Below, in pieces: positions 31,096 through 57,802 of a stretch of 57,802 bases of DNA. Position 1 is the stretch's first letter. Each line of letters begins with the position of its first letter. This stretch comes from a virus, in the IMG/VR virus record IMGVR_UViG_3300037483_000699, positions 1 to 57,802 of that record; one strand, written 5' to 3'. The translations under genes and the position numbers were made by a program. The notes below the pieces were generated by a model, which did no database searches, was not told the DNA's origin, and saw nothing but the letters and a program-made list of their open reading frames with translations.

Positions 31096-31119
31096 GCCAA
31101 CGAGACTTCAATGTGTCAA
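31090..31119 (-). promoter_or_regulatory. Candidate promoter of the second HNH gene
   Basis: Minus strand reads TTGACA-18 nt-ATGATT-6 nt-ATG(31083). Confidence 0.4.
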
Positions 31120-39900: not shown

Positions 39901-41201
39901 CGTTCGCTGCCAGTCGTGGCGTAAACCTTCTGCGCAATATCACGACCGTTGGGAAACTTGGCTACCGGCCGGTGTCAGCCGCCGTCAACCGTCTTGGTGG
40001 CTTGCACGCCACTTGGACGAAGGCAGGTACACGGTGGTGGATTGAAGGCCGAAAGTTCCGGCACTCGCGCGAGTTCGAGGCAGTTTGGGACCGGAACAAG
40101 GATTTTGTGGGCTGGGAATCGACGCTGGCTTCGGTCGAGGGCGCAACGCATCCGATTACGAAGATCTGGCATCCTCTGGGCCTGTTCCAGTGGGCAGAGC
40201 GCGTCAACCGGCCCGAAGCCTTCGCCACGTTCTACCAGCAAGCCCGCAAGGGCATGGGCATGGAAGGACCACAGGCTGAAGCCTACGCACGAGGGATGAC
40301 CCGCTTCACCCAGAACATCTATGATCCTGTGGCGCTCCCGAGAGCGATGCGTGGCCCAGCCGGTCGGCTGGTTCTCCAGTTCAAGCCGTATCTGGTGAAG
40401 CACCTGGAACTCCTCTCCACGCTTCGCGGCGCGGAGATCCCGCGCTACCTCAGCGGATTTCTGGCCTTGGGCGGCCCACGCGCCTACATCTTTCTCTTGC
40501 GGTCTCTCCCGTTCGTCGGAACAGCGTGGCTCCTGCGCGAAGCTGAAGACTGGTTGAACAAAGAAGCTCCGTCCGCCAGCCGCGGGATTGGTGGCGCCGT
40601 TGGCGTGGACGTGACGGCCGCCGTGACTCCACAGCTACCAACCCGACCAGAGGATTGGATTGGGCCTGCCCTGTCCGACCTCTACCGGCTCAATCGAGAC
40701 GTGGTCGGTCCGATGATTCGTGGCGAAAGCAAAGACTGGAACGATGTGGCAGAATGGGGGTCCCGCCTCATGCCCGCCGCGTTCTATTGGCGTCAGCTTG
40801 TCGATTCAGCCCTCGACGACCAAGGTTGGACTGAGGATGACCGCGGCCGACTCCGTTACCAAGCGAAGTCCGCTGACAAAATCAAGTATCTGATGGGCGC
40901 GAAGCCGCTCAAGCAATCCATCGAGGAAGTCGAGTCCCGCTACCTCCGCGAGACAGAAGCCATTTTCAAGCTCAACCGCACAAAGGCTATCGACCGCTAT
41001 TTGGATGCCCTGGACCGCAAGGATACCGCCGAGGCTGCCGACCGGTTCCGCGACATACAGGACTACGGCATCACGCGCGAGATGGTGCTGAATGCCGCGA
41101 AACAGCGATTCCGAGGTCCCAAAGAACGGCTCTACCGAACCCTCTCCCTGAAGACTCGCAGCCGCGAGTGGGAACGCTTCGCGCCCGAAGCTAAAGAGTA
41201 G
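36972..41201 (+). CDS. Giant virion protein (1409 aa), ejection/pilot-protein candidate
   Basis: Long Pro/Ala-rich linkers in the N-terminal half and an alpha-rich C-terminal half. No catalytic motif recognised. Confidence 0.55.
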   Translation: MPADYDVIEPEVAPATDYDVVEPEIEESSPERDFPGKEELYAKEASLRRKTGVLRELEAFTGAAADPIGTLIRGGQAGLQLAGLVSKDAPPIVAPGQRLLPVNAPDVRQFLRNAPGVRGSVLGALSETDVPEVAEELSGMTTTESLGITPALAAGGAPAKAALAAISSQAIVELPRSIRALIEAPPDEKAQARARVLVQGAMAAAPAIPTVARGVGRAAEAVRRPSEWIEPSPDIAPGVEPFVRPIQPPTGGVPNALPVQPKGPVPSVYPQPEVGQGPVPRPGLPAPVPAGGGGKARPPGDAPVDPRPEPPGAQTVAPMSVEPKPPAPAAPAAAPEPAVVPGFAVKNRPAEVADVAQRLYPNDAPAALRLETFSEPTEISNMRQRMTADAEGKAIATPAAEWAAITAARSAPDPNVILKQWGDAAIEKAKQTRAEMSKPKKDFDKAQLLQYQQQLIGEGLQAVGSEGLQFGVKPDVVAEAQRQWVRVNQIVSEPAKAAPVVEPVTPPAAPAPTAPISQTVPGVIPKPAEPSAPVAPRPVEPVGELVPAKPVAETPKPETAEGAAPEFKGPGAEAVAEAVDREQRNERRAGPAPPDVPPPVAEEAGLSPEARIRRRVAEKDVMPMRDFLASPEFEFRKNREAGGYVTRLIEAVLGFKARASRTNEAFVKNLWDKLSDADQLRVTKAMRDVYAGDLEAVRNLPENLRNVADRTRGYFDLTRERIIEVKQQDLIDSLPDARSAAVLAIRDEGMTTAEAFKRFKLREAGRRGVLDALEELQDLRTWGLDNYVTNIELGSYLVRTDANTVIAIGDSVTSATAKARKYLEDHPEYEGDLILDDSYSGPTDVPTKLSQASYYRTISKLSQQLNVSSKKIQEALRREGKPSIIVKPTSKYARPLQQRRGILAGEVSLADSLPSYIFSIEKKLALDPLLKEAQTLLPKLPENISKQVEALIEQSKGTKPVSDQIADYLLSPLGSRPFAASRGVNLLRNITTVGKLGYRPVSAAVNRLGGLHATWTKAGTRWWIEGRKFRHSREFEAVWDRNKDFVGWESTLASVEGATHPITKIWHPLGLFQWAERVNRPEAFATFYQQARKGMGMEGPQAEAYARGMTRFTQNIYDPVALPRAMRGPAGRLVLQFKPYLVKHLELLSTLRGAEIPRYLSGFLALGGPRAYIFLLRSLPFVGTAWLLREAEDWLNKEAPSASRGIGGAVGVDVTAAVTPQLPTRPEDWIGPALSDLYRLNRDVVGPMIRGESKDWNDVAEWGSRLMPAAFYWRQLVDSALDDQGWTEDDRGRLRYQAKSADKIKYLMGAKPLKQSIEEVESRYLRETEAIFKLNRTKAIDRYLDALDRKDTAEAADRFRDIQDYGITREMVLNAAKQRFRGPKERLYRTLSLKTRSREWERFAPEAKE

Positions 41202-41203: not shown

Positions 41204-43033
41204 ATGGCCGTCAACCTCACCTCCACCACCACCTACGGCCTGCTCTGGCCGACTGACATTGGTCCCGTCGCCAAAGAGATGCACTGTATCCAACAGGGCG
41301 GCGAGTGGATGGAAGGTAAACAAAAGTTGGGCGCTCCGCTCTTTGACCTCTACCGCCAAGCGCAGTCCATTCTTTGGCCAGAGGACCAGCACCACGAATG
41401 GTCTGATCTGGTTCTGAAAACGATTCTTGACGGTAGAATCACTGCCGTCGTCGGCCCGAAAGACGCCTCGAAAACGAGGACGCTGGCCAAATACGCGCTC
41501 GTCGATTACTTCGCGTTCCCGCAGATCACCAGCATTCTCGTTTCATCCACCGACATTCGCAGCTTGGAGCTTCGCATCTGGGGTGACATGAAGACCCTGT
41601 TCAACCGAGCCAAGGAAGTCTGGAAAGATGTTCCCGGCAACGTGATGAACTCTCTGCATGGAATCTTCACCGACACGATCACCGAGAAAGACCCGACCGC
41701 TCGCGATTTGCGCAAGGGAATCATCTGCATTCCCGTGAAAGACAGTGAGGGCCAGTGGCAGGGGCTTGAGAAGTGGACGGGGATCAAGCAGGTCCGCCGC
41801 CGAGTGCTCGCTGACGAGGCACAATTCTACTCTCTCTCTTTCCTGTCCACGTTCGCCAATCTGGACAAGGGCAATTTCAAGGGCGTGGTGCTTGGCAACC
41901 CCAACGGCGAGATCACGCCGCTCGACAAAATCAGCGAACCTATGGACGGGTGGGGCAGTGAGGGTGAAATCACCAAGACGATGACGTGGAAGAACAAGTG
42001 GGACGGCATCACGGTCCAACTGTATGGTCCTGACTCTCCCGCGATCCGTTTTCCAGGCAAATACGTCAACTCCATCGGGGTGGAGTACCTGACCAATCAG
42101 GAGGACATCGAACGAATCGTCCGCCGATACGGGAAAGACTCCCCGGAGGACTGGATGTTCGCGCGCGGCATCCGGCCCGAGAATCTGGAACTGTTCCGGG
42201 TGGTGACGCGGGAGATGGTGCGCCAGTTCGATGCTCAAGGCGACGTGGTGTGGGGGCCGAGGGATCGGATCAAGATTTACGCGATTGACGCCAGCTACGG
42301 TGGCGACCGTTGCATTGGCGGTGAAGCCGAGTTCGGAGACGACATCAACGGCATCCAAACTCTGGCATTCAGCGAGCCTCGCATCATTCCGATTCGTATC
42401 TACCCCAAGAGCACGCCCAAGAATGAGCGGCTTCTGCCCGAGGACCAGATCGCCGAGTACGTCAAAACCGACTGCGAGCGGTTGCACATTCCCGCTGCGA
42501 ACGTCTTTCACGATGCCACGGGTCGAGGCTCGTTGGGCACTGCATTCGCCCGCCGGTGGCGACCGGACACGAATCCTATCGAGTTCGGTGGAAAGCCGAC
42601 GGAGCGGCCCGCCCACGGCGACATCTATGTGTACGACGAGGAGAAGCGGGAGCGGCGGCTTCAACGCTGCGACGAGCATTACCACAAATTCGTCAGCGAG
42701 TTGTGGTACAGCGTGCGTTACGCCATCGAAGCTAATCAGGTCCGCAAGCTGTCCAATGGAGTTGTGGACGAACTGTGCGCCAGGAAGTGGCAATATCGCG
42801 GGAACAAGATCGAGGTCGAATCCAAGCAAGACACCAAGCTCCGATTGGGTTATTCGCCGGACATGGCCGACTGGTCCGTCATCATTCTGGAAGGCGCCCG
42901 CCGCCTCGGTTTCACAATCAAGAAAATGCAAGGCCCTGTGAAGTCCAAACGGATAGAGGACCCTTGGAGAGATCGTTTACGCCAGCGCGCCGTCGTCATT
43001 CGCAAGGCGTACACCTTGAACTACACGAACTGA
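41204..43033 (+). CDS. terL: Terminase large subunit
   Basis: Walker A-like VVGPKDASKT, Walker B-like RRVLADEAQF, nuclease-domain IYAIDASYGGD. Confidence 0.8.
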   Translation: MAVNLTSTTTYGLLWPTDIGPVAKEMHCIQQGGEWMEGKQKLGAPLFDLYRQAQSILWPEDQHHEWSDLVLKTILDGRITAVVGPKDASKTRTLAKYALVDYFAFPQITSILVSSTDIRSLELRIWGDMKTLFNRAKEVWKDVPGNVMNSLHGIFTDTITEKDPTARDLRKGIICIPVKDSEGQWQGLEKWTGIKQVRRRVLADEAQFYSLSFLSTFANLDKGNFKGVVLGNPNGEITPLDKISEPMDGWGSEGEITKTMTWKNKWDGITVQLYGPDSPAIRFPGKYVNSIGVEYLTNQEDIERIVRRYGKDSPEDWMFARGIRPENLELFRVVTREMVRQFDAQGDVVWGPRDRIKIYAIDASYGGDRCIGGEAEFGDDINGIQTLAFSEPRIIPIRIYPKSTPKNERLLPEDQIAEYVKTDCERLHIPAANVFHDATGRGSLGTAFARRWRPDTNPIEFGGKPTERPAHGDIYVYDEEKRERRLQRCDEHYHKFVSELWYSVRYAIEANQVRKLSNGVVDELCARKWQYRGNKIEVESKQDTKLRLGYSPDMADWSVIILEGARRLGFTIKKMQGPVKSKRIEDPWRDRLRQRAVVIRKAYTLNYTN

Positions 43034-43049
43034 GCAAATACTGTGACCT

Positions 43050-43784
43050 ATGAGACTCAAAAGTAGAACCGTGTTCCCCCCAGGAGAGTTTCAGCTCATG
43101 CTGCCTGAGGTTGGCATGAAGAAGAGCCTCTCCGGGAGTTTCCGCGAGATGGTAGTGGCCTTCGCCGGCATCGTTCAGAAGAACCCGGCGCTCGCCCAGA
43201 AACTCCATTGGCCAACCGATCTCGTGGGCCAGGAAGCCTTCGTTGATGAACGTGAATGCCGACGATTGCTCTCCGGTGGATGGCCAAGCTTCGTGGATCA
43301 GACCGTTGCTCCTGCGCCCTCCCGGTGGAATCCTTCCGAGGTAAAAAAAAACTGGCGCGGAGTTGCTGCGGTCATTAAAGGCGGCAAGGCGGCCTTCGCC
43401 GCTTACGCCAGCATGTTCGGCCCGGGCGGAAAGCCGGTTGACCGTGATCTGGCAGAAGCGAGAGCCAAAGTTTGCCGTGACTGTCCGAAGAACGATGTGG
43501 ACGGCGGGTTATCCGCTCACTTCCTGGAAGGCACAGCCAAAGGCGTTCTTTCCTTGCTGGGTGCCTTGAAAGACCTCGACGTATCCACTTCGGTCGATGA
43601 TCAACTCGGAGTCTGCAAAGCCTGCCTGTGCCCCACACGCGCAAAAGTTTTCGTTCCACTGACGGTCATCGTCGCGAACATGCCGGCTGCTGTCTGGCCA
43701 GAACTACAAAAGGAAGGGGCGCCGTGCTGGATTTTGCGTGAATCGGGTCGGGTAGAGAAGGAGAGCATCACGCCCACACCGTGA
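43050..43784 (+). CDS. Hypothetical Cys-motif protein (244 aa) coupled to the glycan cluster
   Basis: CRDCPKND ... CKACLCP. Its stop overlaps the GTG of the next gene. Confidence 0.55.
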   Translation: MRLKSRTVFPPGEFQLMLPEVGMKKSLSGSFREMVVAFAGIVQKNPALAQKLHWPTDLVGQEAFVDERECRRLLSGGWPSFVDQTVAPAPSRWNPSEVKKNWRGVAAVIKGGKAAFAAYASMFGPGGKPVDRDLAEARAKVCRDCPKNDVDGGLSAHFLEGTAKGVLSLLGALKDLDVSTSVDDQLGVCKACLCPTRAKVFVPLTVIVANMPAAVWPELQKEGAPCWILRESGRVEKESITPTP

Positions 43785-44665
43785 AGACCTGCTGGTTCTT
43801 TCCGCCGGCACCGCCAGTCTTCGTGCTCCTTGGCCGGGCTGGGGACATCATCCAGGTTCTGCCGTGCTTCCGCGAAATCTACCAGCGCACGGGGACGAGG
43901 CCCATTCTCATCGTCAGCCGGGATTATGCCAATGTACTGGAAGGCGTGTCCTATGTGGAGCCTTACCCCATTGACGGTGCCGCCTGGGACGGGATTCCAG
44001 AAGGCCGTAAAATCGCACAGAAGATATTCGGCGGTGGCACTGTGATTCCTTGGTGGAACGAAGACCCGGCCCATATCGCCATGATTCGCGAGAGTGCCAA
44101 GGGCGATTTCGTGATTCAGTGCCACGCGCATAATTGGGGAGTGGACATCAGAAAGTGGCCCGACTATGGAACTTCGATGGCCTCGCGCTGCGGGTTTACA
44201 TTGGCCGAGTGGCTTGCGTTGCCGCTTGTTTTCGACCAACGCGACCCGACCCGAGAACGGGAACTGTGCAAACGGGTGTTGGGAAAAGAGGCTCGGCCCA
44301 TTATCCTCTACAACCTCAGCGGGATCAGTAGTCCATTTGGTTTCACGCCCGAGGTGGTGAATCCCATACAACGCACTTTCGGGAGGGCCTTCCGCTTCTT
44401 GGACCTGGGCCAGATACGCGCTCTGCGCATCTATGATCTACTCGGCTTTTACGACGATCCCCAGACGGTTGGTTTGGTGACTTCGGATACGGCAACACTG
44501 CATCTCGCCCAAGCTTCCGATGTCCCGTACATCGCGTTCACCGTGAATGGTTGGCGGACCAGCGTGCCCAAGGGCAACTGTGTCCTGCACATTAAGTACA
44601 AAGATGTTCCCAGGATGGTGCCGCAAATACTCAACCAGATTGGCGCTTGGGTGCCTCCAGTATGA
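43781..44665 (+). CDS. GT-B glycosyltransferase, GT9 (heptosyltransferase)-like
   Basis: N-terminal VFVLLGRAGDIIQVLP and C-terminal GLVTSDTATLHLAQASDVPYIAF resemble GT9 signatures. Confidence 0.5.
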   Translation: MKTCWFFPPAPPVFVLLGRAGDIIQVLPCFREIYQRTGTRPILIVSRDYANVLEGVSYVEPYPIDGAAWDGIPEGRKIAQKIFGGGTVIPWWNEDPAHIAMIRESAKGDFVIQCHAHNWGVDIRKWPDYGTSMASRCGFTLAEWLALPLVFDQRDPTRERELCKRVLGKEARPIILYNLSGISSPFGFTPEVVNPIQRTFGRAFRFLDLGQIRALRIYDLLGFYDDPQTVGLVTSDTATLHLAQASDVPYIAFTVNGWRTSVPKGNCVLHIKYKDVPRMVPQILNQIGAWVPPV

Positions 44666-45336
44666 GTCTGTACCACGTATTCTCAGCGTACTCTCCGCAG
44701 GACCCTGACGCGGCGCGGCGCCATGCCCTGGCGCAGACAACTTGGCCGGCTCAACCGTGGAAAGAATGTCCGGTGCAAGACCAGCACCTGCCGCGGATGT
44801 GGAGGGAAGAGGGTCGCGCCTTTCCCCTCGTCCGAGACGTGTTCGACTTTGCCGCTCAGGGCAAAGCCGCATCGGATATCCTCATCTACACCAATGCCGA
44901 CATCCATGTTCGGTCCGATTGCTGCGTCCAAGTTGTATTCGCCTTGCAGGAATCGGATGCCTGCTACTGTTTCCGCCGAGATTTCTCCAAGCTGGATGCG
45001 GTTCTGGCCGATGACAGCTTCGCGAAAGGGCACGATTATCCCGGCCACGACCTGACCGCATTCCGCGTTGGCTGGTGGAACGCGTACCGGGAAGAGATGC
45101 CGGATATGGTCCTGGCGTTAGAGGCATGGGATCCCTGCATTCGATTGTTGATCGACAAAACCAATTCCGGCAAGGACGTGACGTTGCACGATCTGATTGC
45201 GCATGAGCGGCACAGTTCCTACTGGGAGAAATCGGAAAACCGTTACCGCCTGAATGGCCAGAAGCATAACATCGCGCTGGCGAAAGCGTTTCTGACGGCG
45301 AACGGGATCAATCCCAGAACGCGAGGTTTGCCATGA
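44662..45336 (+). CDS. Putative nucleotide-sugar transferase (GT-A-like), weak call
   Basis: ILIYTNADIHV (DxD-like context). Operon context only. Confidence 0.35.
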   Translation: MSLYHVFSAYSPQDPDAARRHALAQTTWPAQPWKECPVQDQHLPRMWREEGRAFPLVRDVFDFAAQGKAASDILIYTNADIHVRSDCCVQVVFALQESDACYCFRRDFSKLDAVLADDSFAKGHDYPGHDLTAFRVGWWNAYREEMPDMVLALEAWDPCIRLLIDKTNSGKDVTLHDLIAHERHSSYWEKSENRYRLNGQKHNIALAKAFLTANGINPRTRGLP

Positions 45337-46100
45337 GCAACTGCTACTTCGTGGAATCCTGGCAGGCGGCCTGTAAAAATGCCAAGATCATAACTTGCTG
45401 CTTCTGGCGGCGTCCGAAGTACACCCGGCGCGTCCTGGACGCATTGCGATGTTGTCCCGGGATTCACGAGTATACCCTCCTGATTCAACAAGACGGTGCG
45501 GATCACCGGGGTGATGTTGGACAGTCGGAAGTGCGTTCCATCTGCGAGCGGATCAACTTTGCGCCTTGCCGCATCGTTTCGGAGTCCGAACACTTGGGTT
45601 GCAACCAAAACACACGGCGGGCGCTGGCAACCGGATTCCGTCATGCCGATTACGTGATCCACATCGAGGACGATATTCAAGTTGCACCGGACGCACTCCA
45701 GTATTTCGAGTGGGCAAAGCAGTTTGGCTCAGACCGATCCGTGTTTGTCGCGAGTATCTGGGAGTGGCCTGCTTTTGGAAGACGGCTTACTCCGGCTGAG
45801 GATACGCATGTCAAATGGCACCCCGGCCTTTCAATCTGGGGATTCGCCACTTGGCGCGACCGCTGGGAGGAAATGGAGAAAGGCTGGACAAATAGTCGTG
45901 ACGACAAAACTGAATCTTGGGATCAATATCTGGAGGCCAACGTGAAAGGCGCAGAACGAGGCAGCCTGTGTCCGATTGTCAGCCGCTCAATCAACATCGG
46001 CGCAGAGAACGGAACGCACTGTGGGGATCACTTGCTGTCGTACTGGGCGGGAGACAAATCGTTTCGCCGAAAGAATCCTCCAATTTACCAACGAATATGA
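45333..46100 (+). CDS. GT-A fold glycosyltransferase (GT2/GnT-I-like)
   Basis: RRPKYTRRVLDAL...LLIQQDG...VIHIEDDIQVAPDALQYF. Confidence 0.5.
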   Translation: MSNCYFVESWQAACKNAKIITCCFWRRPKYTRRVLDALRCCPGIHEYTLLIQQDGADHRGDVGQSEVRSICERINFAPCRIVSESEHLGCNQNTRRALATGFRHADYVIHIEDDIQVAPDALQYFEWAKQFGSDRSVFVASIWEWPAFGRRLTPAEDTHVKWHPGLSIWGFATWRDRWEEMEKGWTNSRDDKTESWDQYLEANVKGAERGSLCPIVSRSINIGAENGTHCGDHLLSYWAGDKSFRRKNPPIYQRI

Positions 46101-46849
46101 GTGACATCGTACAAATCTCAAGCTTAGGGAAAAACGGACGGTACGGCAACATGCTATTCCAGTACTGCTTTGCCAGAACCTACGCGGAGCGCGTGCACGC
46201 GAGATTGGAAACGCCGCCTTGGATTGGTCAAAGATTGTTCGGCCTGTCTGATCCGCCCATCTCCTGCGTGCTTCCGCAACTGCACGAGTCGGCAATCTCA
46301 GGCAGCCCGGCGGACTGGGCGCCCAACGTGGACCTTGTAGGTTACTTCCAACTTGGACGATTGCTAAACTGTGGGTCGCACCGGGAAGCTCGGAAATGGC
46401 TGACTTTCAAACCGGAATGGTTGGCGCGCTTTCCAAAACGGCATCCGGAGTACGCTGCTTGCCACATCCGGCAGGGCGACTTCCTTACATCGTCTGGAGA
46501 TCCATACTGCTTGATCAGTGAAGCCTCCTACCAGCGGGCGGTGGAACAGTTCGTTCCCTCGAACTGCCCGGTTGTCGTCGTTGAGGAGAACATGGCGGAG
46601 ACGCGGAGTGATCTTCCGGGAGACCTCCAATTCCTGCCTGACTTTCTGACGTTGATGCAAGCCGACATTCTATTCCGGGCCAACTCCACATTCAGTTGGT
46701 GGGCTGGGGAGTTGGGAACCTGTCGAACCGTTTACAGTCCTGCGGTGGGCGCCTTGACCGGTCATCACGACGTTACGTTTGTTCTTGGAAACGCAGAGCA
46801 ACACGTCAACTTCGCCGGTTATGGGAAACTGAAGTTCGGACGGGATTAA
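46097..46849 (+). CDS. GT11-family alpha-1,2-fucosyltransferase-like glycosyltransferase
   Basis: All three family motifs present: GRYGNMLFQYCFA, CHIRQGDF, ANSTFSWWAGE. Confidence 0.7.
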   Translation: MSDIVQISSLGKNGRYGNMLFQYCFARTYAERVHARLETPPWIGQRLFGLSDPPISCVLPQLHESAISGSPADWAPNVDLVGYFQLGRLLNCGSHREARKWLTFKPEWLARFPKRHPEYAACHIRQGDFLTSSGDPYCLISEASYQRAVEQFVPSNCPVVVVEENMAETRSDLPGDLQFLPDFLTLMQADILFRANSTFSWWAGELGTCRTVYSPAVGALTGHHDVTFVLGNAEQHVNFAGYGKLKFGRD

Positions 46850-46852
46850 CCT

Positions 46853-47545
46853 ATGCCACTCCTTGATCTTCGCAACGTGACGTTGGTGACTTTCATTCTC
46901 AGCGCAGATACGAGTTGGAGCTATCTGGACGCCACGATTCCCGTTTTGTTGTACATGCAAAGTCTGGCGCGGTGGGGTCGTGTGATCTTGTTCTCTGCTG
47001 TCCCGTTCTCCGACGAGATTCCGGGTGTTGAAATCAAAAGCTTCCCCTCAACCGACATTGCTGGGCATGGCAAGTGGTTTGTGGAGCATCTCCACGAGCA
47101 CATCACAACGCCTTTCGCGATGTACTTCCAGGACGACGGTTTCATTCTGGAGCCGTCGCTCTGGGAACCTGAGTTCTTGAGCTACGACTACATCGGCGCG
47201 CCGTGGGGTGACGGGGACGTAGGGAACACGGGTTTCTCGATCCTCTCGCAAAAACTCCTTCAGAAGTTGGCTCTCATTCCCTACGAAGGCACGCCCCTGG
47301 ATTTCTTCATCTGCAAGGTCAACAAAGAACGGCTGATGCGAGAAGGCATCCGCTACGCGCCTGTCTCGGTTGCGAAACGATTCTCGGTTGAGACCTGCGA
47401 CCAACATGACCCTTCTTTTGGCTATCACGGGCGGCACTATTGTCCGCCCAAGCACGCCATCGGCCAAGAAAAAATTCGGAAGTTCCTGGATCAACAGACC
47501 AAAGCGAGCAAAACTCTCGCTGCCATCCATGCTTATTGCTCTTGA
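46853..47545 (+). CDS. DUF5672-like protein (glycosyltransferase-associated family)
   Basis: YDYIGAPWGDGDVGNTGFSILS. Confidence 0.45.
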   Translation: MPLLDLRNVTLVTFILSADTSWSYLDATIPVLLYMQSLARWGRVILFSAVPFSDEIPGVEIKSFPSTDIAGHGKWFVEHLHEHITTPFAMYFQDDGFILEPSLWEPEFLSYDYIGAPWGDGDVGNTGFSILSQKLLQKLALIPYEGTPLDFFICKVNKERLMREGIRYAPVSVAKRFSVETCDQHDPSFGYHGRHYCPPKHAIGQEKIRKFLDQQTKASKTLAAIHAYCS

Positions 47546-48161
47546 AACAATCATCCCTCGGTGCAAACCGATCACTGGCATCCTGCATATCGGCGCCCAC
47601 CACGCGGAAGAACTTGAAGCCTACGAGAAGGCAGGTGTGCCCCAAGTGGTCTGGGTCGAAGCGGACCCTCGCAAGGCTTCCTACCTCGCCAGCGCAGTGT
47701 GCGCTCCGCCTCGCCACCGGGTTCTCTGCTGCGCGGCAACTGACCACGACGGTACGGTGAAACTGCGGGTGACCAGCAACGATGGCATGTCGTCGTCGCT
47801 GTTGGCCTTAAAACTCCATCGGCAGTACTACCCTGATGTTGTCGAGTCCGAACAGGTGGAAACGCGCGGCCGGCGACTGGGGCCGTACCTGGACGAATTG
47901 GGGATTGCCATTGGCTCGCCCGGGCTCAACTTCCTAAACATCGACATCCAGGGTGCGGAACTGCTGGCGTTGCTCGGGTTGGGAACCAAGGTAGGCCAGT
48001 TCGACGCCATCTACACCGAGGTCAACACCGCCGAGTTGTACGAAGGTGCTGTCCAGTTGCCCGACCTAGACCTTTTCCTGGCTGGCTTTGGATTCACTCG
48101 AGTCGAGACTTTCATGGTGGGCGAACAACACTGGGGCGATGCCCTCTACATAAAGCCATGA
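47529..48161 (+). CDS. FkbM-family methyltransferase
   Basis: ILHIGAHHAEE ... FLNIDIQGAELLALLG. ATG 47529 within ORF 47370-48161. Confidence 0.65.
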   Translation: MLIALETIIPRCKPITGILHIGAHHAEELEAYEKAGVPQVVWVEADPRKASYLASAVCAPPRHRVLCCAATDHDGTVKLRVTSNDGMSSSLLALKLHRQYYPDVVESEQVETRGRRLGPYLDELGIAIGSPGLNFLNIDIQGAELLALLGLGTKVGQFDAIYTEVNTAELYEGAVQLPDLDLFLAGFGFTRVETFMVGEQHWGDALYIKP

Positions 48162-49225
48162 AAACTGAACTGACTATAGAACGTAGAATTACGCCGGCAC
48201 TTCCGGTGGAAGTCTGTCAGCGCCTCTTGGCCTTTTATGAACGCCAGCCGGATGCGACTCCGCAGTGTTCACAAGGATGGCGGTTTCTTCACGGAGGTTC
48301 TTTACTTCCTTTGGTTGACGCTCTCCGCTCAAAGGACGTTCCTCGACTCGCGAACGTGCTTGGTTGCCTCTATCAGAACAAGGTCATGTACGGTCTCGAC
48401 AGTTCCAGGCAATACCTCGAAGAGTACGATCTTGGGTCAGGCGAAGCAACCCATCTTACGCCTGAGTTTTACCTCAACGGTTGGCTGGGCTTGCTGCGCA
48501 CGGTGGCTTGCAACTTTGGCGGGGCGGGAGTTCCCAACCCGGAACAAGGAGGCCCGGCCTGTCCTGAACCGGAGGTTCTGGTGGACATTATCGAAAAAGG
48601 ACTTGGCTTCCGATTGGACTTTCCAGGCGCGGGCAGTGTGTCCGGGGTTAACGTCGCAGGACGGTACATCCCACACAAGTTGCTCGACGGGGCGGGAGTG
48701 ATCGCGACCGCGATGCGGTTGAAGTGTTGGCCGCCGAACAACGTTCTTGAAATCGGGGCAGGCGCAGCATGGCTTGGCTACCTTTGCCACCAACTGCGGA
48801 TTCCCAACTACTCCATTGTCGATCTTCCTGCTGTGGCTGTGATAGGCGCGTCCGTGCTCGCGACTTCGATTTCTCCTGGATTGGTCTGGTTACAGGGGGA
48901 ACCTCGATCCCTTCTTGATGTTGGGTCTTTTGTTTTCGGGTCCGCAGAGCCATTGAAGCCTTTGTGGGAAGGCTCTTTCGATCTGGTCATCAACCAGAAC
49001 TCATTTCCTGAAATCGACCCGCCGCAGCAAGAGGAGTACGTCAAACTCCTTGAGTGGGCGCTTCGCCCAGGCGGCGTGTTTCTCTCCATCAATCACGAGA
49101 CTGACGCATTCAATCAGCGGCGGGCGTTTATTGCCATGTCGGCTTCATCCAGTTTCAAACTCACTCACCGGAGTCCTTGGTGGACACGCCCTGGATGGGT
49201 GGAAGAGATTTGGGAACACACCTAA
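48158..49225 (+). CDS. Class I SAM-dependent methyltransferase (putative sugar O-methyltransferase)
   Basis: VLEIGAGAAWLGY motif I and DLVINQNSFPE. Confidence 0.5.
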   Translation: MKTELTIERRITPALPVEVCQRLLAFYERQPDATPQCSQGWRFLHGGSLLPLVDALRSKDVPRLANVLGCLYQNKVMYGLDSSRQYLEEYDLGSGEATHLTPEFYLNGWLGLLRTVACNFGGAGVPNPEQGGPACPEPEVLVDIIEKGLGFRLDFPGAGSVSGVNVAGRYIPHKLLDGAGVIATAMRLKCWPPNNVLEIGAGAAWLGYLCHQLRIPNYSIVDLPAVAVIGASVLATSISPGLVWLQGEPRSLLDVGSFVFGSAEPLKPLWEGSFDLVINQNSFPEIDPPQQEEYVKLLEWALRPGGVFLSINHETDAFNQRRAFIAMSASSSFKLTHRSPWWTRPGWVEEIWEHT

Positions 49226-49237
49226 ACCAGAACCTGC

Positions 49238-49858
49238 ATGTTTACCTTGGACGAAATCGCAATTCATCACGGGGCCGACAAGGCCAGCCCGTATCATGGG
49301 TACACGGCCGTTTACGCCCGACTCTTTCGAGACCTGCGGTGCCTGCCGATTCGCCTGCTGGAAATCGGTATCGAGTACGGCAAGTCGATGCGGACGTGGC
49401 TGGACTACTTCCCACAGGCCACGATCATCGGCGTGGACATCAACCCGCAATTCTCCGACACGCATCCGCGACTTCACCTGGAGATCGCCGACCAGTACAA
49501 CTCAGCTCAGATGGCCCAACTTGCTGCGCGGTACAATCCGCTCGATGTTGTGATCGATGATGGCTGCCACAAGGCGGACGCGGTGAAAGTCTCCTTTGAG
49601 GCCCTGTGGCCGGAAGTCCGCCCCGGCGGACTCTACATCATCGAAGACGTGGGCACATTTTACCATCCGATGTACCAGTCGGCCGTGGAAGGTCCGATCT
49701 TCCTTCACTCTTTCGTTGACGACGTTCACCAGCGGGGCCGAACGGGAAGTTACGGACTTCCTCCTTACGGAGACAACCCGACTCAACTGTCAGCAATGGA
49801 GGCCACACTCGATTGCTTGTTTTTCTTCAAAGGCATGGCCGTATTAAGGAAAAAATGA
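49238..49858 (+). CDS. Class I SAM-dependent methyltransferase (rhamnosyl-O-methyltransferase/CmcI-like)
   Basis: GADKASPYHGYT..Y, LLEIGIEYGKSMRTW, VVIDDGCH, GGLYIIED. Confidence 0.65.
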   Translation: MFTLDEIAIHHGADKASPYHGYTAVYARLFRDLRCLPIRLLEIGIEYGKSMRTWLDYFPQATIIGVDINPQFSDTHPRLHLEIADQYNSAQMAQLAARYNPLDVVIDDGCHKADAVKVSFEALWPEVRPGGLYIIEDVGTFYHPMYQSAVEGPIFLHSFVDDVHQRGRTGSYGLPPYGDNPTQLSAMEATLDCLFFFKGMAVLRKK

Positions 49859-50859
49859 AACGCATCCTCCTCACTGGCGTCTCGGGTTTCGTGGGTTCGC
49901 ACGTCCTGCGTTACCTGCTCGAACGAACTGACTGGAACATCATCGGCATCGCGTCTTGGAAGCACAAGGGTACCCCGGAGCGGGTCGAGCACGCCTTGCG
50001 AGATCACCCGGAATGGTTGGAGCGTGTTGAGATTGTCACGCACGATCTCATTTCGCCATTCACCGAAACGACGATTCGCGCGATGCGCCAGATCGACGGC
50101 ATCGTGAACATCGCCAGCGAGAGTCACGTCTTTCGGTCCATCACGGAACCGGTTTATTTCGTCCAGAACAACATCAACCTACTCCTCACGCTGCTGGAAC
50201 TGGCGCGGGTGAAGAAACCCGAGTTCTTCCTTCAGTTCTCCACCGACGAGGTCTATGGCGTGGCTCCGCAAGGAGTGGACTTTCCAGAGTGGTCGCCGTT
50301 GGTGCCATCGAACGCCTACTCCGCCTCGAAAGCCGCTCAAGAGGTCATCGCCATCGCCTACTGGCGGACCTACGGCGTGCCCCTGATCATCACGAACACG
50401 ATGAATCTTTTTGGTGAAACCCAGGACCGAGAGAAGTTCATCCCCATGCTGATCTATCGAATCAAGCGAGGCCGGACCGTGATCATCCACGGCAACGAAC
50501 AGAACATAGGTTCGCGCTTCTATCTGCACGTCCGGAACTGCGCGTCTGCGCTGTTGTTCCTGCTTCGGCGAAAACCCGCTCAGTTTGAGGACGGAAAGGT
50601 GACCAAACCCGACCGGTTCAATATCGTGGGCGACATTGAACTGGACAACCTGACGCTCGCCCGGAAGATCGCGGAGCTTGTCGGGAAACCCTTGGTGCAT
50701 CGCTTGGAGGACTTTCACTTGCAGCGGCCAGGGCATGACCGCCGCTACTCACTCTCGGGCGCGAAGCTCAAGAAACTTGGCTGGAAATCGCCTATGAGTT
50801 TCGAGGATTCACTCAAACAATGCGTGGAATGGACGCTCAAAAACCCGGAATGGCTCTGA
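49855..50859 (+). CDS. NDP-hexose 4,6-dehydratase (RmlB-like extended SDR)
   Basis: TGVSGFVGSH (GxxGxxG), FSTDEVYG, YSASKAAQE (YxxxK). Confidence 0.75.
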   Translation: MKRILLTGVSGFVGSHVLRYLLERTDWNIIGIASWKHKGTPERVEHALRDHPEWLERVEIVTHDLISPFTETTIRAMRQIDGIVNIASESHVFRSITEPVYFVQNNINLLLTLLELARVKKPEFFLQFSTDEVYGVAPQGVDFPEWSPLVPSNAYSASKAAQEVIAIAYWRTYGVPLIITNTMNLFGETQDREKFIPMLIYRIKRGRTVIIHGNEQNIGSRFYLHVRNCASALLFLLRRKPAQFEDGKVTKPDRFNIVGDIELDNLTLARKIAELVGKPLVHRLEDFHLQRPGHDRRYSLSGAKLKKLGWKSPMSFEDSLKQCVEWTLKNPEWL

Positions 50860-50863
50860 TCCC

Positions 50864-52090
50864 ATGTACAAAACTCACACCCACTGCCGCGCCTGCGGCG
50901 AACAACTCAACCTCGTCGGCGCCGACTTCGGCATCACCCCGCTCGTAAACGCCTTCCGCAAACCCATCGAGGAACAGGCGGGCTACGCCCCATTGAAGAT
51001 CATGCTCTGCGAGAAGTGCTGGCTGCCTCAATTGTCCGTTGTGGTCAACCCGCACTTGCTCTATGACAACTACCCCTACGCCCACAGCACGACCGAAACC
51101 CTCGTTCGGCATATTGGCATCTTGGCCGAGATTCTTCACACTCACCGTCCTGCACTTGGCCGGGTCTTGGAGGTTGGCAGCAACGACGGGTTGCTTCTTG
51201 AGAAACTGAAGGCGCTGAAAGACGTGGAGGCGGTGGTTGGAATCGACCCAGCAGGAGACCTTGTCAGAATAGCACGCGACCGGGGCGTGCCAACTTTCTG
51301 CGGCTTGTTTGGCCACCCCATCGTCACCTGGATTTCTGATACTCACTTGCCGTTCAACGTCGTGCTGGCACGACACGTGTTTGCCCACATGGACAACTGG
51401 CGCGAGACTTTGTCTTTGATGGATCGGCTGACAACCGAAGACGCCATCGTGGCGATTGAAGTCCAGTACGCGCCCGACCTGTTGGAGCATGTCGAGTGGG
51501 ATCAGGTTTATCACGAACATCTGAGTTACGTCACTTTGACCGGGCTGGACGCGGCTTGCGAGGGCACAGCCTTCCGCATCCAGGACGCCGTGCGGGTGGC
51601 TTACAACGGGGGCAGCGCGGTCATCATTTTAAGGAAGCGCAGTTGGCCGGAGAAGCCAACCGTTGCCGTGCGGACCATGATGAACCTCGAACCACGCAAG
51701 ACGGAGACGTGGTTCGATTTCGAGAACAAGGCCCGGCACGCGATAGCCACTCTCAAGAGCGAGGTGTCATGGCGTAACTTGGGTGGGCAGCTTGTGGCGG
51801 GTTACGGGGCACCGGCCAAATGCACCAATTGGGTTCACGCCTGCGGTTTCACATCGAAGGACCTCCCCTTCGTTGTGGACGCGGCCCCCATGAAGCAGGG
51901 TAAATTGGTGCCCGGGTCCGACATCCCAGTCGTCGGACGCGACGAGATCGAGCGGGTAAAACCCCTCGCCATGGTGCTTTTCGCCTGGAACTTCGAGGAG
52001 GAGATACTGAAAAAGGAGGCGGCCTACATCGGCGGCGGCGGCGTGTTCATAGTTCCCATCCCGACATCTCACACAGTACCGTCTGGCTAA
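50864..52090 (+). CDS. NDP-hexose C-methyltransferase-like protein (TylCIII/TcaB9-type)
   Basis: CRACG..L......G..PLVNAF.......YPL....CEKCWLPQL....P..LY.NYPY.HS, then VLEVGSNDG. Confidence 0.7.
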   Translation: MYKTHTHCRACGEQLNLVGADFGITPLVNAFRKPIEEQAGYAPLKIMLCEKCWLPQLSVVVNPHLLYDNYPYAHSTTETLVRHIGILAEILHTHRPALGRVLEVGSNDGLLLEKLKALKDVEAVVGIDPAGDLVRIARDRGVPTFCGLFGHPIVTWISDTHLPFNVVLARHVFAHMDNWRETLSLMDRLTTEDAIVAIEVQYAPDLLEHVEWDQVYHEHLSYVTLTGLDAACEGTAFRIQDAVRVAYNGGSAVIILRKRSWPEKPTVAVRTMMNLEPRKTETWFDFENKARHAIATLKSEVSWRNLGGQLVAGYGAPAKCTNWVHACGFTSKDLPFVVDAAPMKQGKLVPGSDIPVVGRDEIERVKPLAMVLFAWNFEEEILKKEAAYIGGGGVFIVPIPTSHTVPSG

Positions 52091-52137: not shown

Positions 52138-54546
52138 ATGAAGTTCACGACCGCACAAGCCATCGAGCAGGTCTGCTACCAGATGCGTCTGGGCGATTAC
52201 CTGCGTGGCCAGGATAGAGGAAGGATTCTTTCCCTCGCCAATGGCACGCCGCCCTACACCGCCGAGGAGGCTGAGCGTAACAAGAAAAACGTCAACTTCA
52301 ATGACCTGACACTGACTCGCATCACGCACGACGCCCGCCTCCAGGTCTATCAGGCGTTCTTCAAGCCGGGCGCGTTCTTCCGGGCGAACACCGACATGGG
52401 CGCAGTTCAGAAACGCCAGGAGCGAAGCACCATCGTCACGACCCAGATTGCCCGCATCATGAAGCGGTCCAACCCGTACTTCGAGTGCCAGCGGGCGAAG
52501 TTCGGCCAGATGATCCTCCACGGCATCGGGCCGGGCACTTGGGAAGACGGAGACCGCTGGTGCCCCATCCCGATTGACATTGCCGACGTGCTGCTTCCTG
52601 CCAATACCCTGCTGACCATGCGGAATCTGCCGTTCTTCGCCATCTGGCGCGGCTACACCGCCAACGAACTCCAGAAGCTCACGCGGATTGCCCGACTGGA
52701 CAAGGCGCGGAACCCCGGCTGGAACCTGCCGGTAGTGGACCGGGCGATTGCCTGGGCGGACAAGGAAACTGCGAAGCTCAACGGCAGCGGGACACCGAAT
52801 GACTACTGGGTGCCCGAGAAGATGGTCGAGCGCCTCAAGCAGGACGGTGGCATCTACGCCAGCGACCGCGCCGCGACGATTTCCTGCTGGGATTTCTATT
52901 TCTTGGACGATGCCGGCCGCCGCGAAGGCTTGCGGCGCCGGATCGTGTTCGACGCCTACGGTGGGGCAGGTGCCTGGGATGGCCCGAACGGCTACAACGG
53001 CAAATCCATGCCGAGCAAGAACCTGATCGAAGATCCGAAGTCCGACTTCCTGTTCAGCTCCGGCAATCGGGTGGTGGCGGACAAGTGGAGCGAGGTGCTG
53101 CACTTCCAGTTCGCTGATCTCTCGGCGAAGTTCCCCGCCATGTACCACTCGACGCGCGGCATCGGGTTCATGCTCTACGCGCCGTGCCACCTCCAGAACC
53201 GGCTGAATTGCGGCTGGGCCGAATCGGTGTTCGAGCAACTGCTGAATTACATGCGGGTGAACTCAGGCGACGAGGCCGAGCGGGCACTGAAGATTGAACT
53301 GATCGACCGCGGTATCATCGACGAGAGTGTTCACTTCCTGAGCCCGGCTGAGCGGTGGCAACCCAACGCCGACCTGATCGGGCTGGGCATGTCCCGCTTC
53401 CGCCAGATCATCAACGAGAACTCGTCCAGCTACATGCAGAATCGGGACCTGAGCCATGACCGCGTCGAGAAAACCAAGTTCCAGGTCATGTCCGAGATTC
53501 AGACGATGCAAACCCTGCTGTCAGCCGGCCTCCAACAGACCTACCGCTACCAGGAAGACGAGTACCGAGAGATTTTCCGGCGTTTCATGCAGAAGAACAG
53601 CAGCGACCCGGACGTGATCGAGTTTCGCGCCCGCGCGCTGATGCGGGGCGTTCCGGAGCGGTTCCTGACGCCCGACGCCTGGGACATCCAAGCCGAGCGC
53701 ATCATGGGCGGTGGTAGCAAGACCCTCGAACTGGCCGCAGCCCAGCAACTCATGGAGTGGAGGTCAGCGTTTGGGCCAGAGGCCCAGCAGCGGATCCTCA
53801 AGAAAGCCACGCTGGCCGTCCTCGACGATGCGGCCGAGACAGAGCTTCTCGTTCCGACAGTCTCGTCAGTGTCGGCTTCGCGGCACGGCGCGGCCGTCGC
53901 CTACGGCTCGCTCATGGCCGGCGCGGTCATCTCCCGGTGGCCGGCGAGCTACAGTCTCATGGAAGTCACCGAAACCCTTTTGGGCGAGCTTGGCCAGAGC
54001 GTCACCACGGCCGCCAAGCAGGGCGGCATGGTGTCAATGGACAAGTTCACCGGCTACCAGAACGTCCTCAAGCACCTGGGCGATCTACTCGCCGAGGTCA
54101 GCAAGGACGACGCGAACCAGGAACGGGCGAAGGAACTCGCCCAAACCAGCGGCAAGATTGCCAACTTGGTCAAGGGCTTTGGCCAGCGCCTCGCCGAGCA
54201 GATGAAGGCCCAGGGCCAGGAAGGTGGGAATGGCGAAATGGAGACCGCGAAAGCCAAGGCCGCGGCGATGGTGATGCAGGCCAAGGTCAAGGCCGAGGTC
54301 ACCAAGGAGAGCCACGCCCAGCGGACCGCTCAGCGGCAAGTCCAGTCCGAGATGGAGATGGACCGAGCGGAACAGAAGCACCAGATGGAGATGCGGCACG
54401 AAGCCGAGCGGATCCGACTGGAGAACGAGGCCCTGGACATCGACACGGCGGCCAGCGTGCGGCGGGATTCCGCCGACGCGGCCGTCCAGCGCCAGATCGC
54501 CAAGAAGAACGCCGAAGAGGCACCCGCCAAAACTGATGCCGAGTAA
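52138..54546 (+). CDS. Portal protein candidate (802 aa) with a C-terminal coiled-coil barrel-like tail
   Basis: Size and its position upstream of scaffold and capsid. K/E/A/Q-rich last ~130 aa. Confidence 0.55.
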   Translation: MKFTTAQAIEQVCYQMRLGDYLRGQDRGRILSLANGTPPYTAEEAERNKKNVNFNDLTLTRITHDARLQVYQAFFKPGAFFRANTDMGAVQKRQERSTIVTTQIARIMKRSNPYFECQRAKFGQMILHGIGPGTWEDGDRWCPIPIDIADVLLPANTLLTMRNLPFFAIWRGYTANELQKLTRIARLDKARNPGWNLPVVDRAIAWADKETAKLNGSGTPNDYWVPEKMVERLKQDGGIYASDRAATISCWDFYFLDDAGRREGLRRRIVFDAYGGAGAWDGPNGYNGKSMPSKNLIEDPKSDFLFSSGNRVVADKWSEVLHFQFADLSAKFPAMYHSTRGIGFMLYAPCHLQNRLNCGWAESVFEQLLNYMRVNSGDEAERALKIELIDRGIIDESVHFLSPAERWQPNADLIGLGMSRFRQIINENSSSYMQNRDLSHDRVEKTKFQVMSEIQTMQTLLSAGLQQTYRYQEDEYREIFRRFMQKNSSDPDVIEFRARALMRGVPERFLTPDAWDIQAERIMGGGSKTLELAAAQQLMEWRSAFGPEAQQRILKKATLAVLDDAAETELLVPTVSSVSASRHGAAVAYGSLMAGAVISRWPASYSLMEVTETLLGELGQSVTTAAKQGGMVSMDKFTGYQNVLKHLGDLLAEVSKDDANQERAKELAQTSGKIANLVKGFGQRLAEQMKAQGQEGGNGEMETAKAKAAAMVMQAKVKAEVTKESHAQRTAQRQVQSEMEMDRAEQKHQMEMRHEAERIRLENEALDIDTAASVRRDSADAAVQRQIAKKNAEEAPAKTDAE

Positions 54547-55088: not shown

Positions 55089-55406
55089 ATGACCACCACA
55101 CCAACGACAGACGCTTTTAACAAGAGATTGTGGAAATTCCAAGATACGCACGGAGTACCGCCGCAATTTGCGCTAATCTCAAGGGGGTTCGCGCTGAAAT
55201 GGCTTTCCGAAATACGGCGTTGGGAGGCCAACTTGAGAAAAGCGCGCCGTCCCGGCATTCCACCTTCTGAACTCACACCAGCATTCACCGGGAATGAACG
55301 CTCTTTCCCATATACGATCTCACCGTCCAAGGGCACTTGGTTTCGGCTCTTCAAGAAAGCACCGAGAGTTATTTCTGCCGCAACAAAACTCAACCACGAA
55401 GCCTAA
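55089..55406 (+). CDS. Hypothetical head-module protein (105 aa)
   Basis: ORF track. Confidence 0.55.
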   Translation: MTTTPTTDAFNKRLWKFQDTHGVPPQFALISRGFALKWLSEIRRWEANLRKARRPGIPPSELTPAFTGNERSFPYTISPSKGTWFRLFKKAPRVISAATKLNHEA

Positions 55407-55408
55407 TC

Positions 55409-57047: not shown

Positions 57048-57802
57048 ATGGACTGCGAGTTTCTTAGCTGTAAGGCTTTCACTCAAGTCCTGGTGGACCA
57101 GCAGCCCAACTACGACGAGCTGATCCTCAAGGACATCCGGCCGACGGATTCATGGATCGGCAACGTAGCGACGGGCGTGTTTCCGGCGCACCAAGGCGTT
57201 TCCCGACGGCTCGACCGATTCCACCACGTCTTTCCGAACACGACCAAGGTGTGGAACGCCACGCAGTACGCGTCGTGCATCGGGGAGCCTTGCGACAAGT
57301 CGCGGCACTGCGTTGGAGTGGGCAGCTCGCGGACGGAGTACTACCTGGAGGAGCAGTATTGGCAGACGCCTCTGCTGTGCTTCGACCAGCTCATGCACGT
57401 CACGCACGCGACGGAACAGATGGATTACTGGATCACCGACATTCTCCGGCCGACGACTTCGGCGGTCATGTCGATGTTCCTGCGCAAGCGCGCCCTCCAG
57501 CACGCCGGTTCTCATTTCGTGGTCAACTCGACCATGCCGACGTTCACGTTCAACTGGACGGCGGTGGGCGACGAGGAGTACTTCTTCGACTGCTCGGCGG
57601 ACCCGGACACGGTGTTCAAGCTGGCGCCTCAGCACCTCCAATACCTGTTCCTGCCACTCATGCACATGGGCTACGGTGGAAAGAACCCGTTCAAGGAGAC
57701 GATGACCTTCATCGAGCTTGTCGCCAGCATCGAGACGGCCTGGGAACTGGAGAAGCTCGCCGGCCAGCCCGGTACTGGAGGCACGCCTACCGTGCCCGGC
57801 AA
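57048..57802 (+). CDS. Major capsid protein candidate, N-terminal part (runs off the window and continues at 1-749)
   Basis: Hand translation from ATG 57048 (in-frame stop at 56994) is open to the window end: MDCEFLSCKAFTQVLVDQQPNYDEL... Same frame as 27-749 via the 127-bp overlap. Confidence 0.5.
   Translation, partial: MDCEFLSCKAFTQVLVDQQPNYDELILKDIRPTDSWIGNVATGVFPAHQGVSRRLDRFHHVFPNTTKVWNATQYASCIGEPCDKSRHCVGVGSSRTEYYLEEQYWQTPLLCFDQLMHVTHATEQMDYWITDILRPTTSAVMSMFLRKRALQHAGSHFVVNSTMPTFTFNWTAVGDEEYFFDCSADPDTVFKLAPQHLQYLFLPLMHMGYGGKNPFKETMTFIELVASIETAWELEKLAGQPGTGGTPTVPG
57676..57802. repeat. Exact terminal direct repeat (copy of 1-127)
   Basis: 127/127 identical to the window start. Confidence 0.95.

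Follow-up and report, generated by a model that had tools for sequence, protein, structure and literature searches.

The window analysed here is the whole of the IMG/VR virus record IMGVR_UViG_3300037483_000699, a stretch of 57,802 nucleotides. An exact direct repeat of 127 base pairs is present at its two ends (1-127 and 57676-57802), and the window is therefore considered to be a complete genome of about 57.7 kilobases (kb), either circularly assembled or terminally redundant. Between the gene for the large terminase, terL (41204-43033), and a portal candidate (52138-54546) lies a block of ten genes, here termed g1 to g10 (43781-52090, plus strand). An earlier interpretation made from the letters alone (the sequence-only reading) had taken this block to be a pathway for a branched, methylated 6-deoxyhexose glycan with several transferases, and the family matches described below bear this out. 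What appears to be new here is the complete genome, the uncultured family to which it belongs and the shuffled islands that its relatives carry in the same slot.

All ten open reading frames (ORFs) are found in the ORF list at the coordinates claimed for them, on the same strand and mostly overlapping. Counted from the preceding gene, g0, to g10 (43050-52090), seven of the ten junctions overlap, six of them by 4 nucleotides and one by 17, and the remaining three leave gaps of 3, 4 and 12 nucleotides. Greedy ORF calling, in three versions, did not cope with the overlaps and gave way to a dynamic-programming caller based on codon usage and trained on terL and portal homologues. This caller returned the same ten genes, the sole difference being the start of g2, which was placed at 44647 and not at 44662. 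Between 36 and 55.5 kb, matches resembling promoters or terminators showed no excess over shuffled sequence. Together with the junctions, this would fit one translationally coupled block, though the two do not prove a single transcript. The G+C content of the island (43000-52000) is 0.55-0.58, lower than the 0.59-0.63 of the structural genes on its two sides.

Profile searches place eight of the ten genes in families linked to glycans. The ninth, g1, is supported by its predicted structure and the tenth, g2, by motifs only; the ten proteins do not fall mostly into non-glycan families. None of them carries a convincing membrane segment. Every motif quoted in the sequence-only reading is also present, namely HIEDD, GRYGNMLFQYCFA, HIRQGDF, NSTFSWWAGE, GVSGFVG, STDEVYG and YSASK.

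The first gene, g1 (43781-44665), encodes a predicted glycosyltransferase (GT) of the GT-B fold that resembles family GT9, as judged by AlphaFold2 and Foldseek, and is the candidate priming transferase of the block. Its model, built from an alignment of 28 homologues, has a predicted local distance difference test score (pLDDT) of 92.9. The best Foldseek matches belong to GT9 (3tov, E 2e-8; 1psw, E 7.5e-8; WaaF, WaaC and TibC), with template modelling scores of 0.5-0.58. No sequence family was matched, Pfam PF01075 (GT9) included, and sequence searches of PHROGs and the PDB were equally without a match. An hhalign comparison with a GT9-containing relative gave a weak match to the C-terminal motif only, at 24% probability, and the profile of the g1 family alignment retrieved nothing significant from the PDB. 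The GT9-like label is thus upheld by fold, GT9 structures being the closest, and not by sequence. In the g1 family, which numbers 908 representatives, fusions to GT9, GT2, GH130, DUF5672 or GT25 domains are frequent, and these independently place g1 in glycan metabolism.

The next two genes had both been described as GT-A-like transferases. For g3 (45333-46100) this is supported by a match above the cut-off to Pfam PF03071 (E 1.8e-9), which makes it a GT-A glycosyltransferase like GT13 (GNT-I), with the HIEDD motif at residue 110. For g2 (44662-45336, or perhaps from 44647) the label of putative GT-A-like transferase has a motif basis only: TNADI, GHDLxxFR and HERH are conserved with three relatives, and no match was found in Pfam, PHROG, NCBIfam or PDB sequences. 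The product of g4 (46097-46849) is a transferase resembling GT11 (alpha-1,2-fucosyltransferase). It contains HIRQGDF, an HxRxGD motif, as well as NSTFSWWAGE, and it matches the glycosyltransferase family PHROG 2644 (E 6e-12). The Pfam score for GT11 falls just below the gathering cut-off (PF01531, E 1.4e-4, 21.7 bits against 23.9). Lastly, g5 (46853-47545) is a DUF5672 protein, as had been claimed (Pfam PF18922, E 8.6e-12), and a probable transferase. Other proteins show DUF5672 joined to domains of the g1 type, and the islands of the relatives contain it repeatedly.

The second half of the block encodes methyltransferases and sugar enzymes. The sequence-only reading had named here an FkbM methyltransferase, two class I S-adenosylmethionine (SAM) methyltransferases, a 4,6-dehydratase and a C-methyltransferase, and profile searches agree in each case. 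The FkbM methyltransferase is g6 (47529-48161), with Pfam PF05050 at E 5e-11 and TIGR01444 above its cut-off. In g7 (48158-49225) the methyltransferase occupies the C-terminal half, after an uncharacterised N-terminal region of about 190 residues; Methyltransf_11 is matched at its Pfam cut-off, and a NanM-like putative sugar O-methyltransferase family is matched at E 2e-7, which is under the NCBIfam cut-off. A further class I SAM methyltransferase is encoded by g8 (49238-49858), with matches to Methyltransf_24 (E 1.1e-9) and PHROG 21658 (E 1.6e-26).

The product of g9 (49855-50859), a short-chain dehydrogenase, is an RmlB-like 4,6-dehydratase of nucleoside diphosphate (NDP)-hexoses. It matches GDP_Man_Dehyd/Epimerase in Pfam (E 2e-48) and deoxythymidine diphosphate (dTDP)-glucose 4,6-dehydratases in the PDB (E 3e-50 for 6bi4). 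The Rossmann motif GxxGxxG is present as GVSGFVG at residue 8, the catalytic TDE lies within STDEVYG at residue 129, and YxxxK is found as YSASK at residue 155. The best NCBIfam family is TIGR01181, at 226 bits, which is below the equivalog cut-off of 365. Following it, g10 (50864-52090) is a three-domain NDP-hexose 3-C-methyltransferase, made up of a Zn-binding N-terminus, a SAM methyltransferase domain and a C-terminal domain. PF08421 (Methyltransf_13), PF13489 (Methyltransf_23) and PF08484 (Methyltransf_14) all exceed their cut-offs, and the full length of the protein matches MtmC in the PDB (4rv9, E 2.5e-69) and TcaB9 (about 1e-41). MtmC is described as bifunctional, acting as both a ketoreductase and a C-methyltransferase (PMC10269268).

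The rest of the genome is informative for what could not be found in it. As the sequence-only reading had it, membrane proteins of the Wzx/Wzy/ligase type and a nucleotidyltransferase are lacking. Among the ORFs of at least 60 residues in all six frames, none contains as many as three hydrophobic 19-mers, as a polytopic membrane protein would, and no nucleotidyltransferase is detectable by Pfam in the 70 ORFs scanned. An integrase family was likewise not found among the scanned ORFs, with sensitivity being limited in so divergent a genome. Pfam scans of this genome detected no hydroxymethylase (thymidylate-synthase-like), TET/JBP dioxygenase, DNA methylase or deazaguanine gene. Aglycone-forming genes, that is polyketide synthase (PKS), nonribosomal peptide synthetase (NRPS) or terpene genes, are also absent from the genome, as are tRNA genes and Rfam elements from the window. 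Outside the block, the only Pfam matches are Mgm101, a helix-turn-helix (HTH) domain, He_PIG and DUF5977.

The block has counterparts in related phages. A scan of IMG/VR with the single TerL protein found nothing, and an alignment-based scan found 109 relatives. Only two contigs of metagenome-assembled genomes (Binatia and Bryobacteraceae) were retrieved from the GTDB genomes, one of them the size of a phage genome (54.9 kb), and these give no host assignment. At least 833 homologues of TerL are known in all, on contigs of up to about 59 kb. The window belongs to a large uncultured phage family with genomes of about 50-59 kb. Loci around the TerL homologues were taken from IMG/VR and assemblies, and 22 of these have terL and the portal candidate on the same strand. 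The segment between g0 and the portal measures 0-8.6 kb across them; 19 of the 22 carry an island of 3.6-8.6 kb in this slot and three carry nothing. The synteny of terminase, glycan genes and portal that the sequence-only reading proposed to look for in viral sequences was therefore found. Its remark that the arrangement is unusual does not hold within this family, in which the island is the rule and its hypervariability is the notable feature.

The composition of the island is shuffled between phages, with g1 opening it in the seven closest. Other relatives carry a GT9+GT2 fusion, GT2_4, DUF5672, a dehydratase/C-methyltransferase pair, Methyltransf_24 and FkbM, and further ones TylF, radical SAM/SPASM enzymes, a pyruvyl transferase and, in one relative, an RmlD-like reductase. 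A Pfam census of 96 island ORFs from relatives matched 37 families. The 25 most frequent of these comprise methyltransferases, transferases, short-chain dehydrogenases/reductases acting on NDP-sugars, radical SAM enzymes, DUF5672 and TylF, the exception being two HNH endonucleases. In one relative (L094), an island of a GT9 gene, g1, an unknown protein and a pyruvyl transferase stands directly upstream of the portal, with no terminase called in the roughly 10 kb upstream; this island therefore accompanies the head module and not the terminase. In another (L097), an island with the C-methyltransferase directly precedes a portal-sized gene. When the window is compared with L002, g1-g4 and g8 are 73-93% identical (g8 93%), as against 50% for g5, 61% for the terminase and 69% for the portal. 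Such values suggest that blocks of the island are exchanged between phages, and the dip in G+C content over the island would also fit.

Several other features of these islands were observed. An HNH endonuclease is the last gene before the portal in three relatives (L003, 19312-20079; L064, 16796-17650; L093, 12370-13056). These proteins could be homing endonucleases that aid the turnover of the island, or could be associated with packaging. Radical SAM enzymes, one of them with SPASM, are found in the islands of L016, L035, L028 (10495-11613) and L097 (1290-2360), where they adjoin GT2_4, Methyltransf_24 and C-methyltransferase genes, a hint that certain island versions may involve radical sugar chemistry. 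In seven loci (L007, L042, L043, L072, L084, L085 and L088) the portal, scaffold and capsid genes lie on the strand opposite to terL. In L007, a C5 DNA methylase is found next to terL, on its upstream side.

The distribution of individual enzymes was also considered. The 120 matches listed for g1 come from contigs no longer than 58.7 kb, and the 120 listed for g10 from contigs no longer than 65 kb, many of which measure 53-56 kb. Since the listed homologues are all on phage-sized contigs, both genes are taken to represent phage-borne clades and not recent pick-ups from hosts. A tblastn search with g1 against 50,697 GenBank phage records gave no match, and g10 matched only eight of these records, four of them megaphages. 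Giant viruses (PBCV-1 and Bodo saltans virus) have proteins with folds like that of g1, as do uncultured phages with the annotation Aah/TibC or GT9.

The reading that we prefer, with a probability of about 0.5, is that the ten genes form a self-contained cytoplasmic cassette for building a glycan, which is co-expressed with the head-assembly genes and glycosylates virion proteins. In this pathway, the host would supply an NDP-hexose, most likely dTDP-glucose, since the phage has no nucleotidyltransferase of its own. This sugar would be dehydrated by g9 to an NDP-4-keto-6-deoxyhexose, to which g10 would add a methyl branch at C-3. The 4-keto group might then be reduced either by g10 itself, given the ketoreductase activity of MtmC, or by a host reductase of the RmlD type. 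Further, an oligosaccharide would be built by up to five transferase-like proteins, g1 (GT-B), g2, g3 and g5 (GT-A-like or DUF5672) and g4 (GT11-like), and would be O-methylated by g6, g7 and g8. Attachment of the glycan would take place in the cytoplasm, on virion proteins that have just been made, be they capsid proteins, portal-proximal proteins or those of the fibre, a gene for which is placed at 31113-33833. For the protein-priming step, g1 is the candidate, as the conserved and phage-restricted first enzyme. As the islands that fill this slot in related phages differ in make-up, the locus may be regarded as determining a variable 'glyco-type' for the surface of the particle, and shielding, particle stability, adhesion and receptor interactions are plausible selective forces acting on it.

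Virion proteins are favoured as the acceptor on several grounds. The island is fixed before the head genes throughout the family. All its products are soluble, and lysogeny genes, membrane machinery and a route to hydroxylated bases were not found in the genome. The listed homologues of g1 and g10 are phage-borne, which adds to the case. The fold of g1 includes the protein O-heptosyltransferase TibC. Lastly, similar folds are found in giant viruses that glycosylate their capsids, and there is a precedent in mycobacteriophages.

The mycobacteriophages Che8, Corndog and Myrna glycosylate proteins of the capsid and the tail tube with transferases of their own (Freeman 2023, via PMC12363180 and PMC13313380). 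Going by these accounts, the present system shares with theirs soluble glycosyltransferases encoded by the phage, and methyltransferases have been noted in some actinobacteriophages; cytoplasmic glycosylation of capsid and tail proteins has been proposed or shown there. Glycosyltransferases are present here as well (g1 by structure, g3 by Pfam and g4 by PHROG), with g1 giving no tblastn match in the 50,697 phage records. In contrast to the mycobacteriophage systems, which have few transferases as those papers describe them, the cassette has ten genes, with its own 4,6-dehydratase and 3-C-methyltransferase. It is also a hypervariable island fixed before the portal, and its host is not evidently actinobacterial.

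Giant viruses provide a second parallel, since they carry methylated deoxyhexose glycans on particle proteins without the use of host membrane machinery. The glycosylation of capsids and fibrils in PBCV-1 and Mimivirus likewise relies on virus-owned tailoring of nucleotide sugars, multiple transferases and sugar methyltransferases. These viruses differ in having eukaryotic hosts, unrelated capsids and far larger genomes, and show no detectable sequence homology to the cassette. To our knowledge, C-branched sugars are not part of the giant-virus glycans described. By analogy, the cassette would work like mycobacteriophage and giant-virus glycosylation without being a sequence relative of either.

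For the sugar itself, the closest parallel is the dTDP-mycarose type of pathway (RmlB with TylC3, MtmC or TcaB9), in which g9 and g10 have full-length relatives in the dehydratase and the 3-C-methyltransferase. The cassette, unlike such pathways, has no 2,3-dehydratase, aminotransferase, epimerase, dedicated 4-ketoreductase or aglycone pathway; its product would therefore be a 3-C-methyl-6-deoxyhexose and not a 2,6-dideoxy sugar. For the attachment step, g1 has its GT-B/GT9-type fold in common with TibC and Aah, which are GT9-related protein O-glycosyltransferases that work in the cytoplasm directly from a nucleotide sugar. They differ in that the identity is 10-12%, g1 has 294 residues as against about 380-390 in TibC chains, and the cassette holds no pathway for adenosine diphosphate-heptose.

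Several points weigh against glycosylation of the virion. No acceptor motif or site was identified in the sequence, and canonical GT9 enzymes act on the lipopolysaccharide (LPS) core, so that a lipid-linked host acceptor is possible. With neither a dedicated 4-ketoreductase nor a nucleotidyltransferase, the pathway relies on host enzymes or on the putative bifunctionality of g10, and the C-methylated product of MtmC still has to be reduced by a separate enzyme (PMC10269268). The nucleotide specificity of g9 is uncertain, as its score lies below the equivalog cut-off for dTDP-glucose dehydratases. Family support is lacking for g2. The position in the late operon is suggestive and is not proof of a virion target. 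In addition, the labels of portal and capsid are inferred only, from size, a P22-like order of genes and conservation.

The main rival explanation, which we consider unlikely, is a remodelling of the host envelope. Here, the soluble transferases would act on lipid-linked intermediates of the host, such as LPS core, O-antigen, capsule or S-layer precursors, and host flippases and ligases would carry out the export. The changed surface would then block superinfection or the adsorption of progeny to debris. The LPS heptosyltransferases WaaF and WaaC are indeed among the best structural matches of g1, and GT11-like and GT2-like enzymes with RmlB are typical of O-antigen loci; nevertheless, the listed homologues of g1 and g10 (120 each) reside on phage-sized contigs and not on bacterial chromosomes. 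Peripheral enzymes of this kind need no transmembrane segment, and the lack of such segments in the cassette is compatible with the rival. The genome as a whole, however, was searched without finding a polytopic membrane protein, an initiating phosphoglycosyl transferase family or an integrase. The diversity of islands between relatives would fit a matching to different host glycans, but the coupling of the island to the head genes, and its linkage to the portal from one family member to the next, speak against the rival. A change of the envelope late in the lytic cycle would, moreover, have little time to act.

Seroconversion, where known, is a trait of temperate phages. Seroconverting phages with Gtr or Oac likewise encode sugar-modifying enzymes of variable specificity, and these systems consist of integral membrane proteins in temperate phages. 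The present genome differs from them, as neither polytopic membrane proteins nor an integrase were found in it.

Another intracellular target is an improbable alternative. The cassette might modify non-structural proteins of the phage or host, mask the terminase, portal or capsid from defence sensors, or act on a small molecule or glycolipid. A cytoplasmic pathway co-expressed with proteins that sensors recognise would suit masking, and the structural matches of TerL include the Avs3-terminase complex 8dgc. On the other hand, we know of no earlier case in which glycans hide proteins from intracellular sensors, and a protein that received its glycan before assembly should normally still bear it in the virion, by which this alternative merges with virion glycosylation. 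Small-molecule natural products are the best-known place for C-methylated deoxysugars, yet no PKS, NRPS or terpene aglycone genes are present in the genome.

Hypermodification of DNA, with methylated sugars on modified phage bases as a defence against restriction or CRISPR and the adjacency to packaging genes reflecting modification at or before packaging, is very improbable. In its favour, the DNA glycosyltransferases of phages have the GT-B or GT-A fold and lack sequence signatures at the family level, restriction pressure should make modification loci hypervariable, and the relative L007, in whose covered flanks no island was seen, carries its C5 DNA methylase beside terL. Against it, the genome has no detectable hydroxymethylase, TET/JBP, DNA methylase or deazaguanine gene, the 25 most frequent island families of the relatives include no nucleic-acid enzyme except HNH, and a set of five transferases and four methyltransferases, together with a pathway for a C-branched deoxysugar, goes far beyond any DNA sugar modification known to us.

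A broader proposal about the family is advanced tentatively and falls short of being probable. It states that an uncultured family of phages of about 55 kb, probably from soil, keeps a hypervariable 'glyco-type' locus before the portal, as a viral counterpart of the O-antigen locus, and coats its particles with oligosaccharides of methylated and sometimes C-branched deoxysugars, for which the phages would use nucleotide-sugar chemistry of their own. If this is true, elaborate glycosylation of virions would be common, and diversifying, in phages outside the Actinobacteria. If the glycan is indeed on the particle, virion glycosylation would extend beyond the few actinobacteriophages and be both widespread and quick to diversify among environmental phages. 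This would bear on the contacts of the phage surface with hosts, matrices and defences. Many transferases and dehydratases of viromes that are annotated as 'auxiliary metabolic genes', with a change of the host surface in mind, would need to be revisited, and defined glycans could be built onto particles for phage display or therapy. In addition, a compact set of soluble enzymes for 3-C-methyl-6-deoxyhexose glycans is available from the family.

The genes on both sides of the block were examined as well. The product of terL (41204-43033, plus strand), which forms the upstream border, has no match in Pfam, PHROG, PDB sequences or, by tblastn, GenBank phages, and the profile of its alignment retrieved nothing significant from the PDB. 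Its AlphaFold2 model (pLDDT 88.2) is closest to Sf6 gp2 (best E 5e-14) and also matches the terminases of D6E, HK97, T4 (gp17) and T7; the top 32 Foldseek matches are all large terminases of phages or herpesviruses. By its predicted structure, the protein is a large terminase. In many TerL homologues of 880-960 residues, intein/Hint domains are inserted in the ATPase region (P0009, P0016, P0035; L034, L035, L064, L093), and inteins appear to be common in the terminase of this phage family.

Directly after terL comes g0 (43050-43784, plus strand), a conserved Cys-rich protein that probably binds Zn. It is present in 20 of the 22 relatives, with invariant residues C142, C145, C189, C192, C194 and C226, and has no family match in Pfam, PHROG or PDB sequences. 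Three relatives without an island also possess it, lacking the N-terminal stretch of about 100 residues. As it occurs where there is no island, g0 was dropped as a part of the glycan system.

On the downstream border stands the portal candidate (52138-54546, plus strand; 802 residues), recognised by its size, gene order and conservation. It is 28-69% identical across the relatives. Its place is always after the island and ahead of the scaffold-like and capsid-like genes, and small genes come directly after it. It has no match in Pfam, PHROG or the PDB, including a PDB profile search with the family alignment. The placing of the block between terL and a portal gene thus gained structural support on the terL side, and no family or PDB match for the identity of the portal. 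With hhalign, the portal candidate was compared with P22 gp1 and TerL with gp2; nothing was found even for the structurally confirmed TerL, so this route has no power here.

Further downstream, the scaffold-like protein (55337-56767, first Met codon at 55409, plus strand) has no sequence match in Pfam, PHROG or the PDB, and its homologues adjoin the portal and capsid candidates in the relatives. On inspection of the sequence, an N-terminal region of about 140 residues, rich in Pro, Ala, Thr and Glu and unaligned with the relatives, precedes a long coiled coil. This region could be a disordered linker or, conceivably, a substrate for O-glycosylation.

The candidate for the major capsid protein (about 458 residues, plus strand) starts at 57024, runs to the end of the window at 57802 and continues across the terminal repeat to 749, its ORF being continuous after circularising. 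It ranks among the best-conserved proteins of the family, with 33-64% identity, reaching 63-64% even where TerL is 36-37% identical (L072 and L084). Seven of its cysteines are invariant, of which several lie close to the C-terminus. No relative was detected in Pfam, PHROGs or the PDB, including by a profile of the family alignment. Four N-x-S/T sequons seen by eye in this protein were dropped from consideration; their number is near chance by a rough estimate, and no enzyme of the N-glycosyltransferase (NGT) type was recognised.

In the left part of the window (1-25500), only two of 42 ORFs have a Pfam match (Mgm101/Rad52-like and HTH), and no polymerase, primase or helicase is recognisable in the left 25 kb or so. 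The replication module of this phage family is thus essentially uncharacterised. Directly upstream of TerL lies a giant protein of 1409 residues (36972-41201), which has 1442-1850 residues in the relatives. Its only match is a short one, to PHROG 11358 (no known function), and it may be an internal or ejected protein of the virion.

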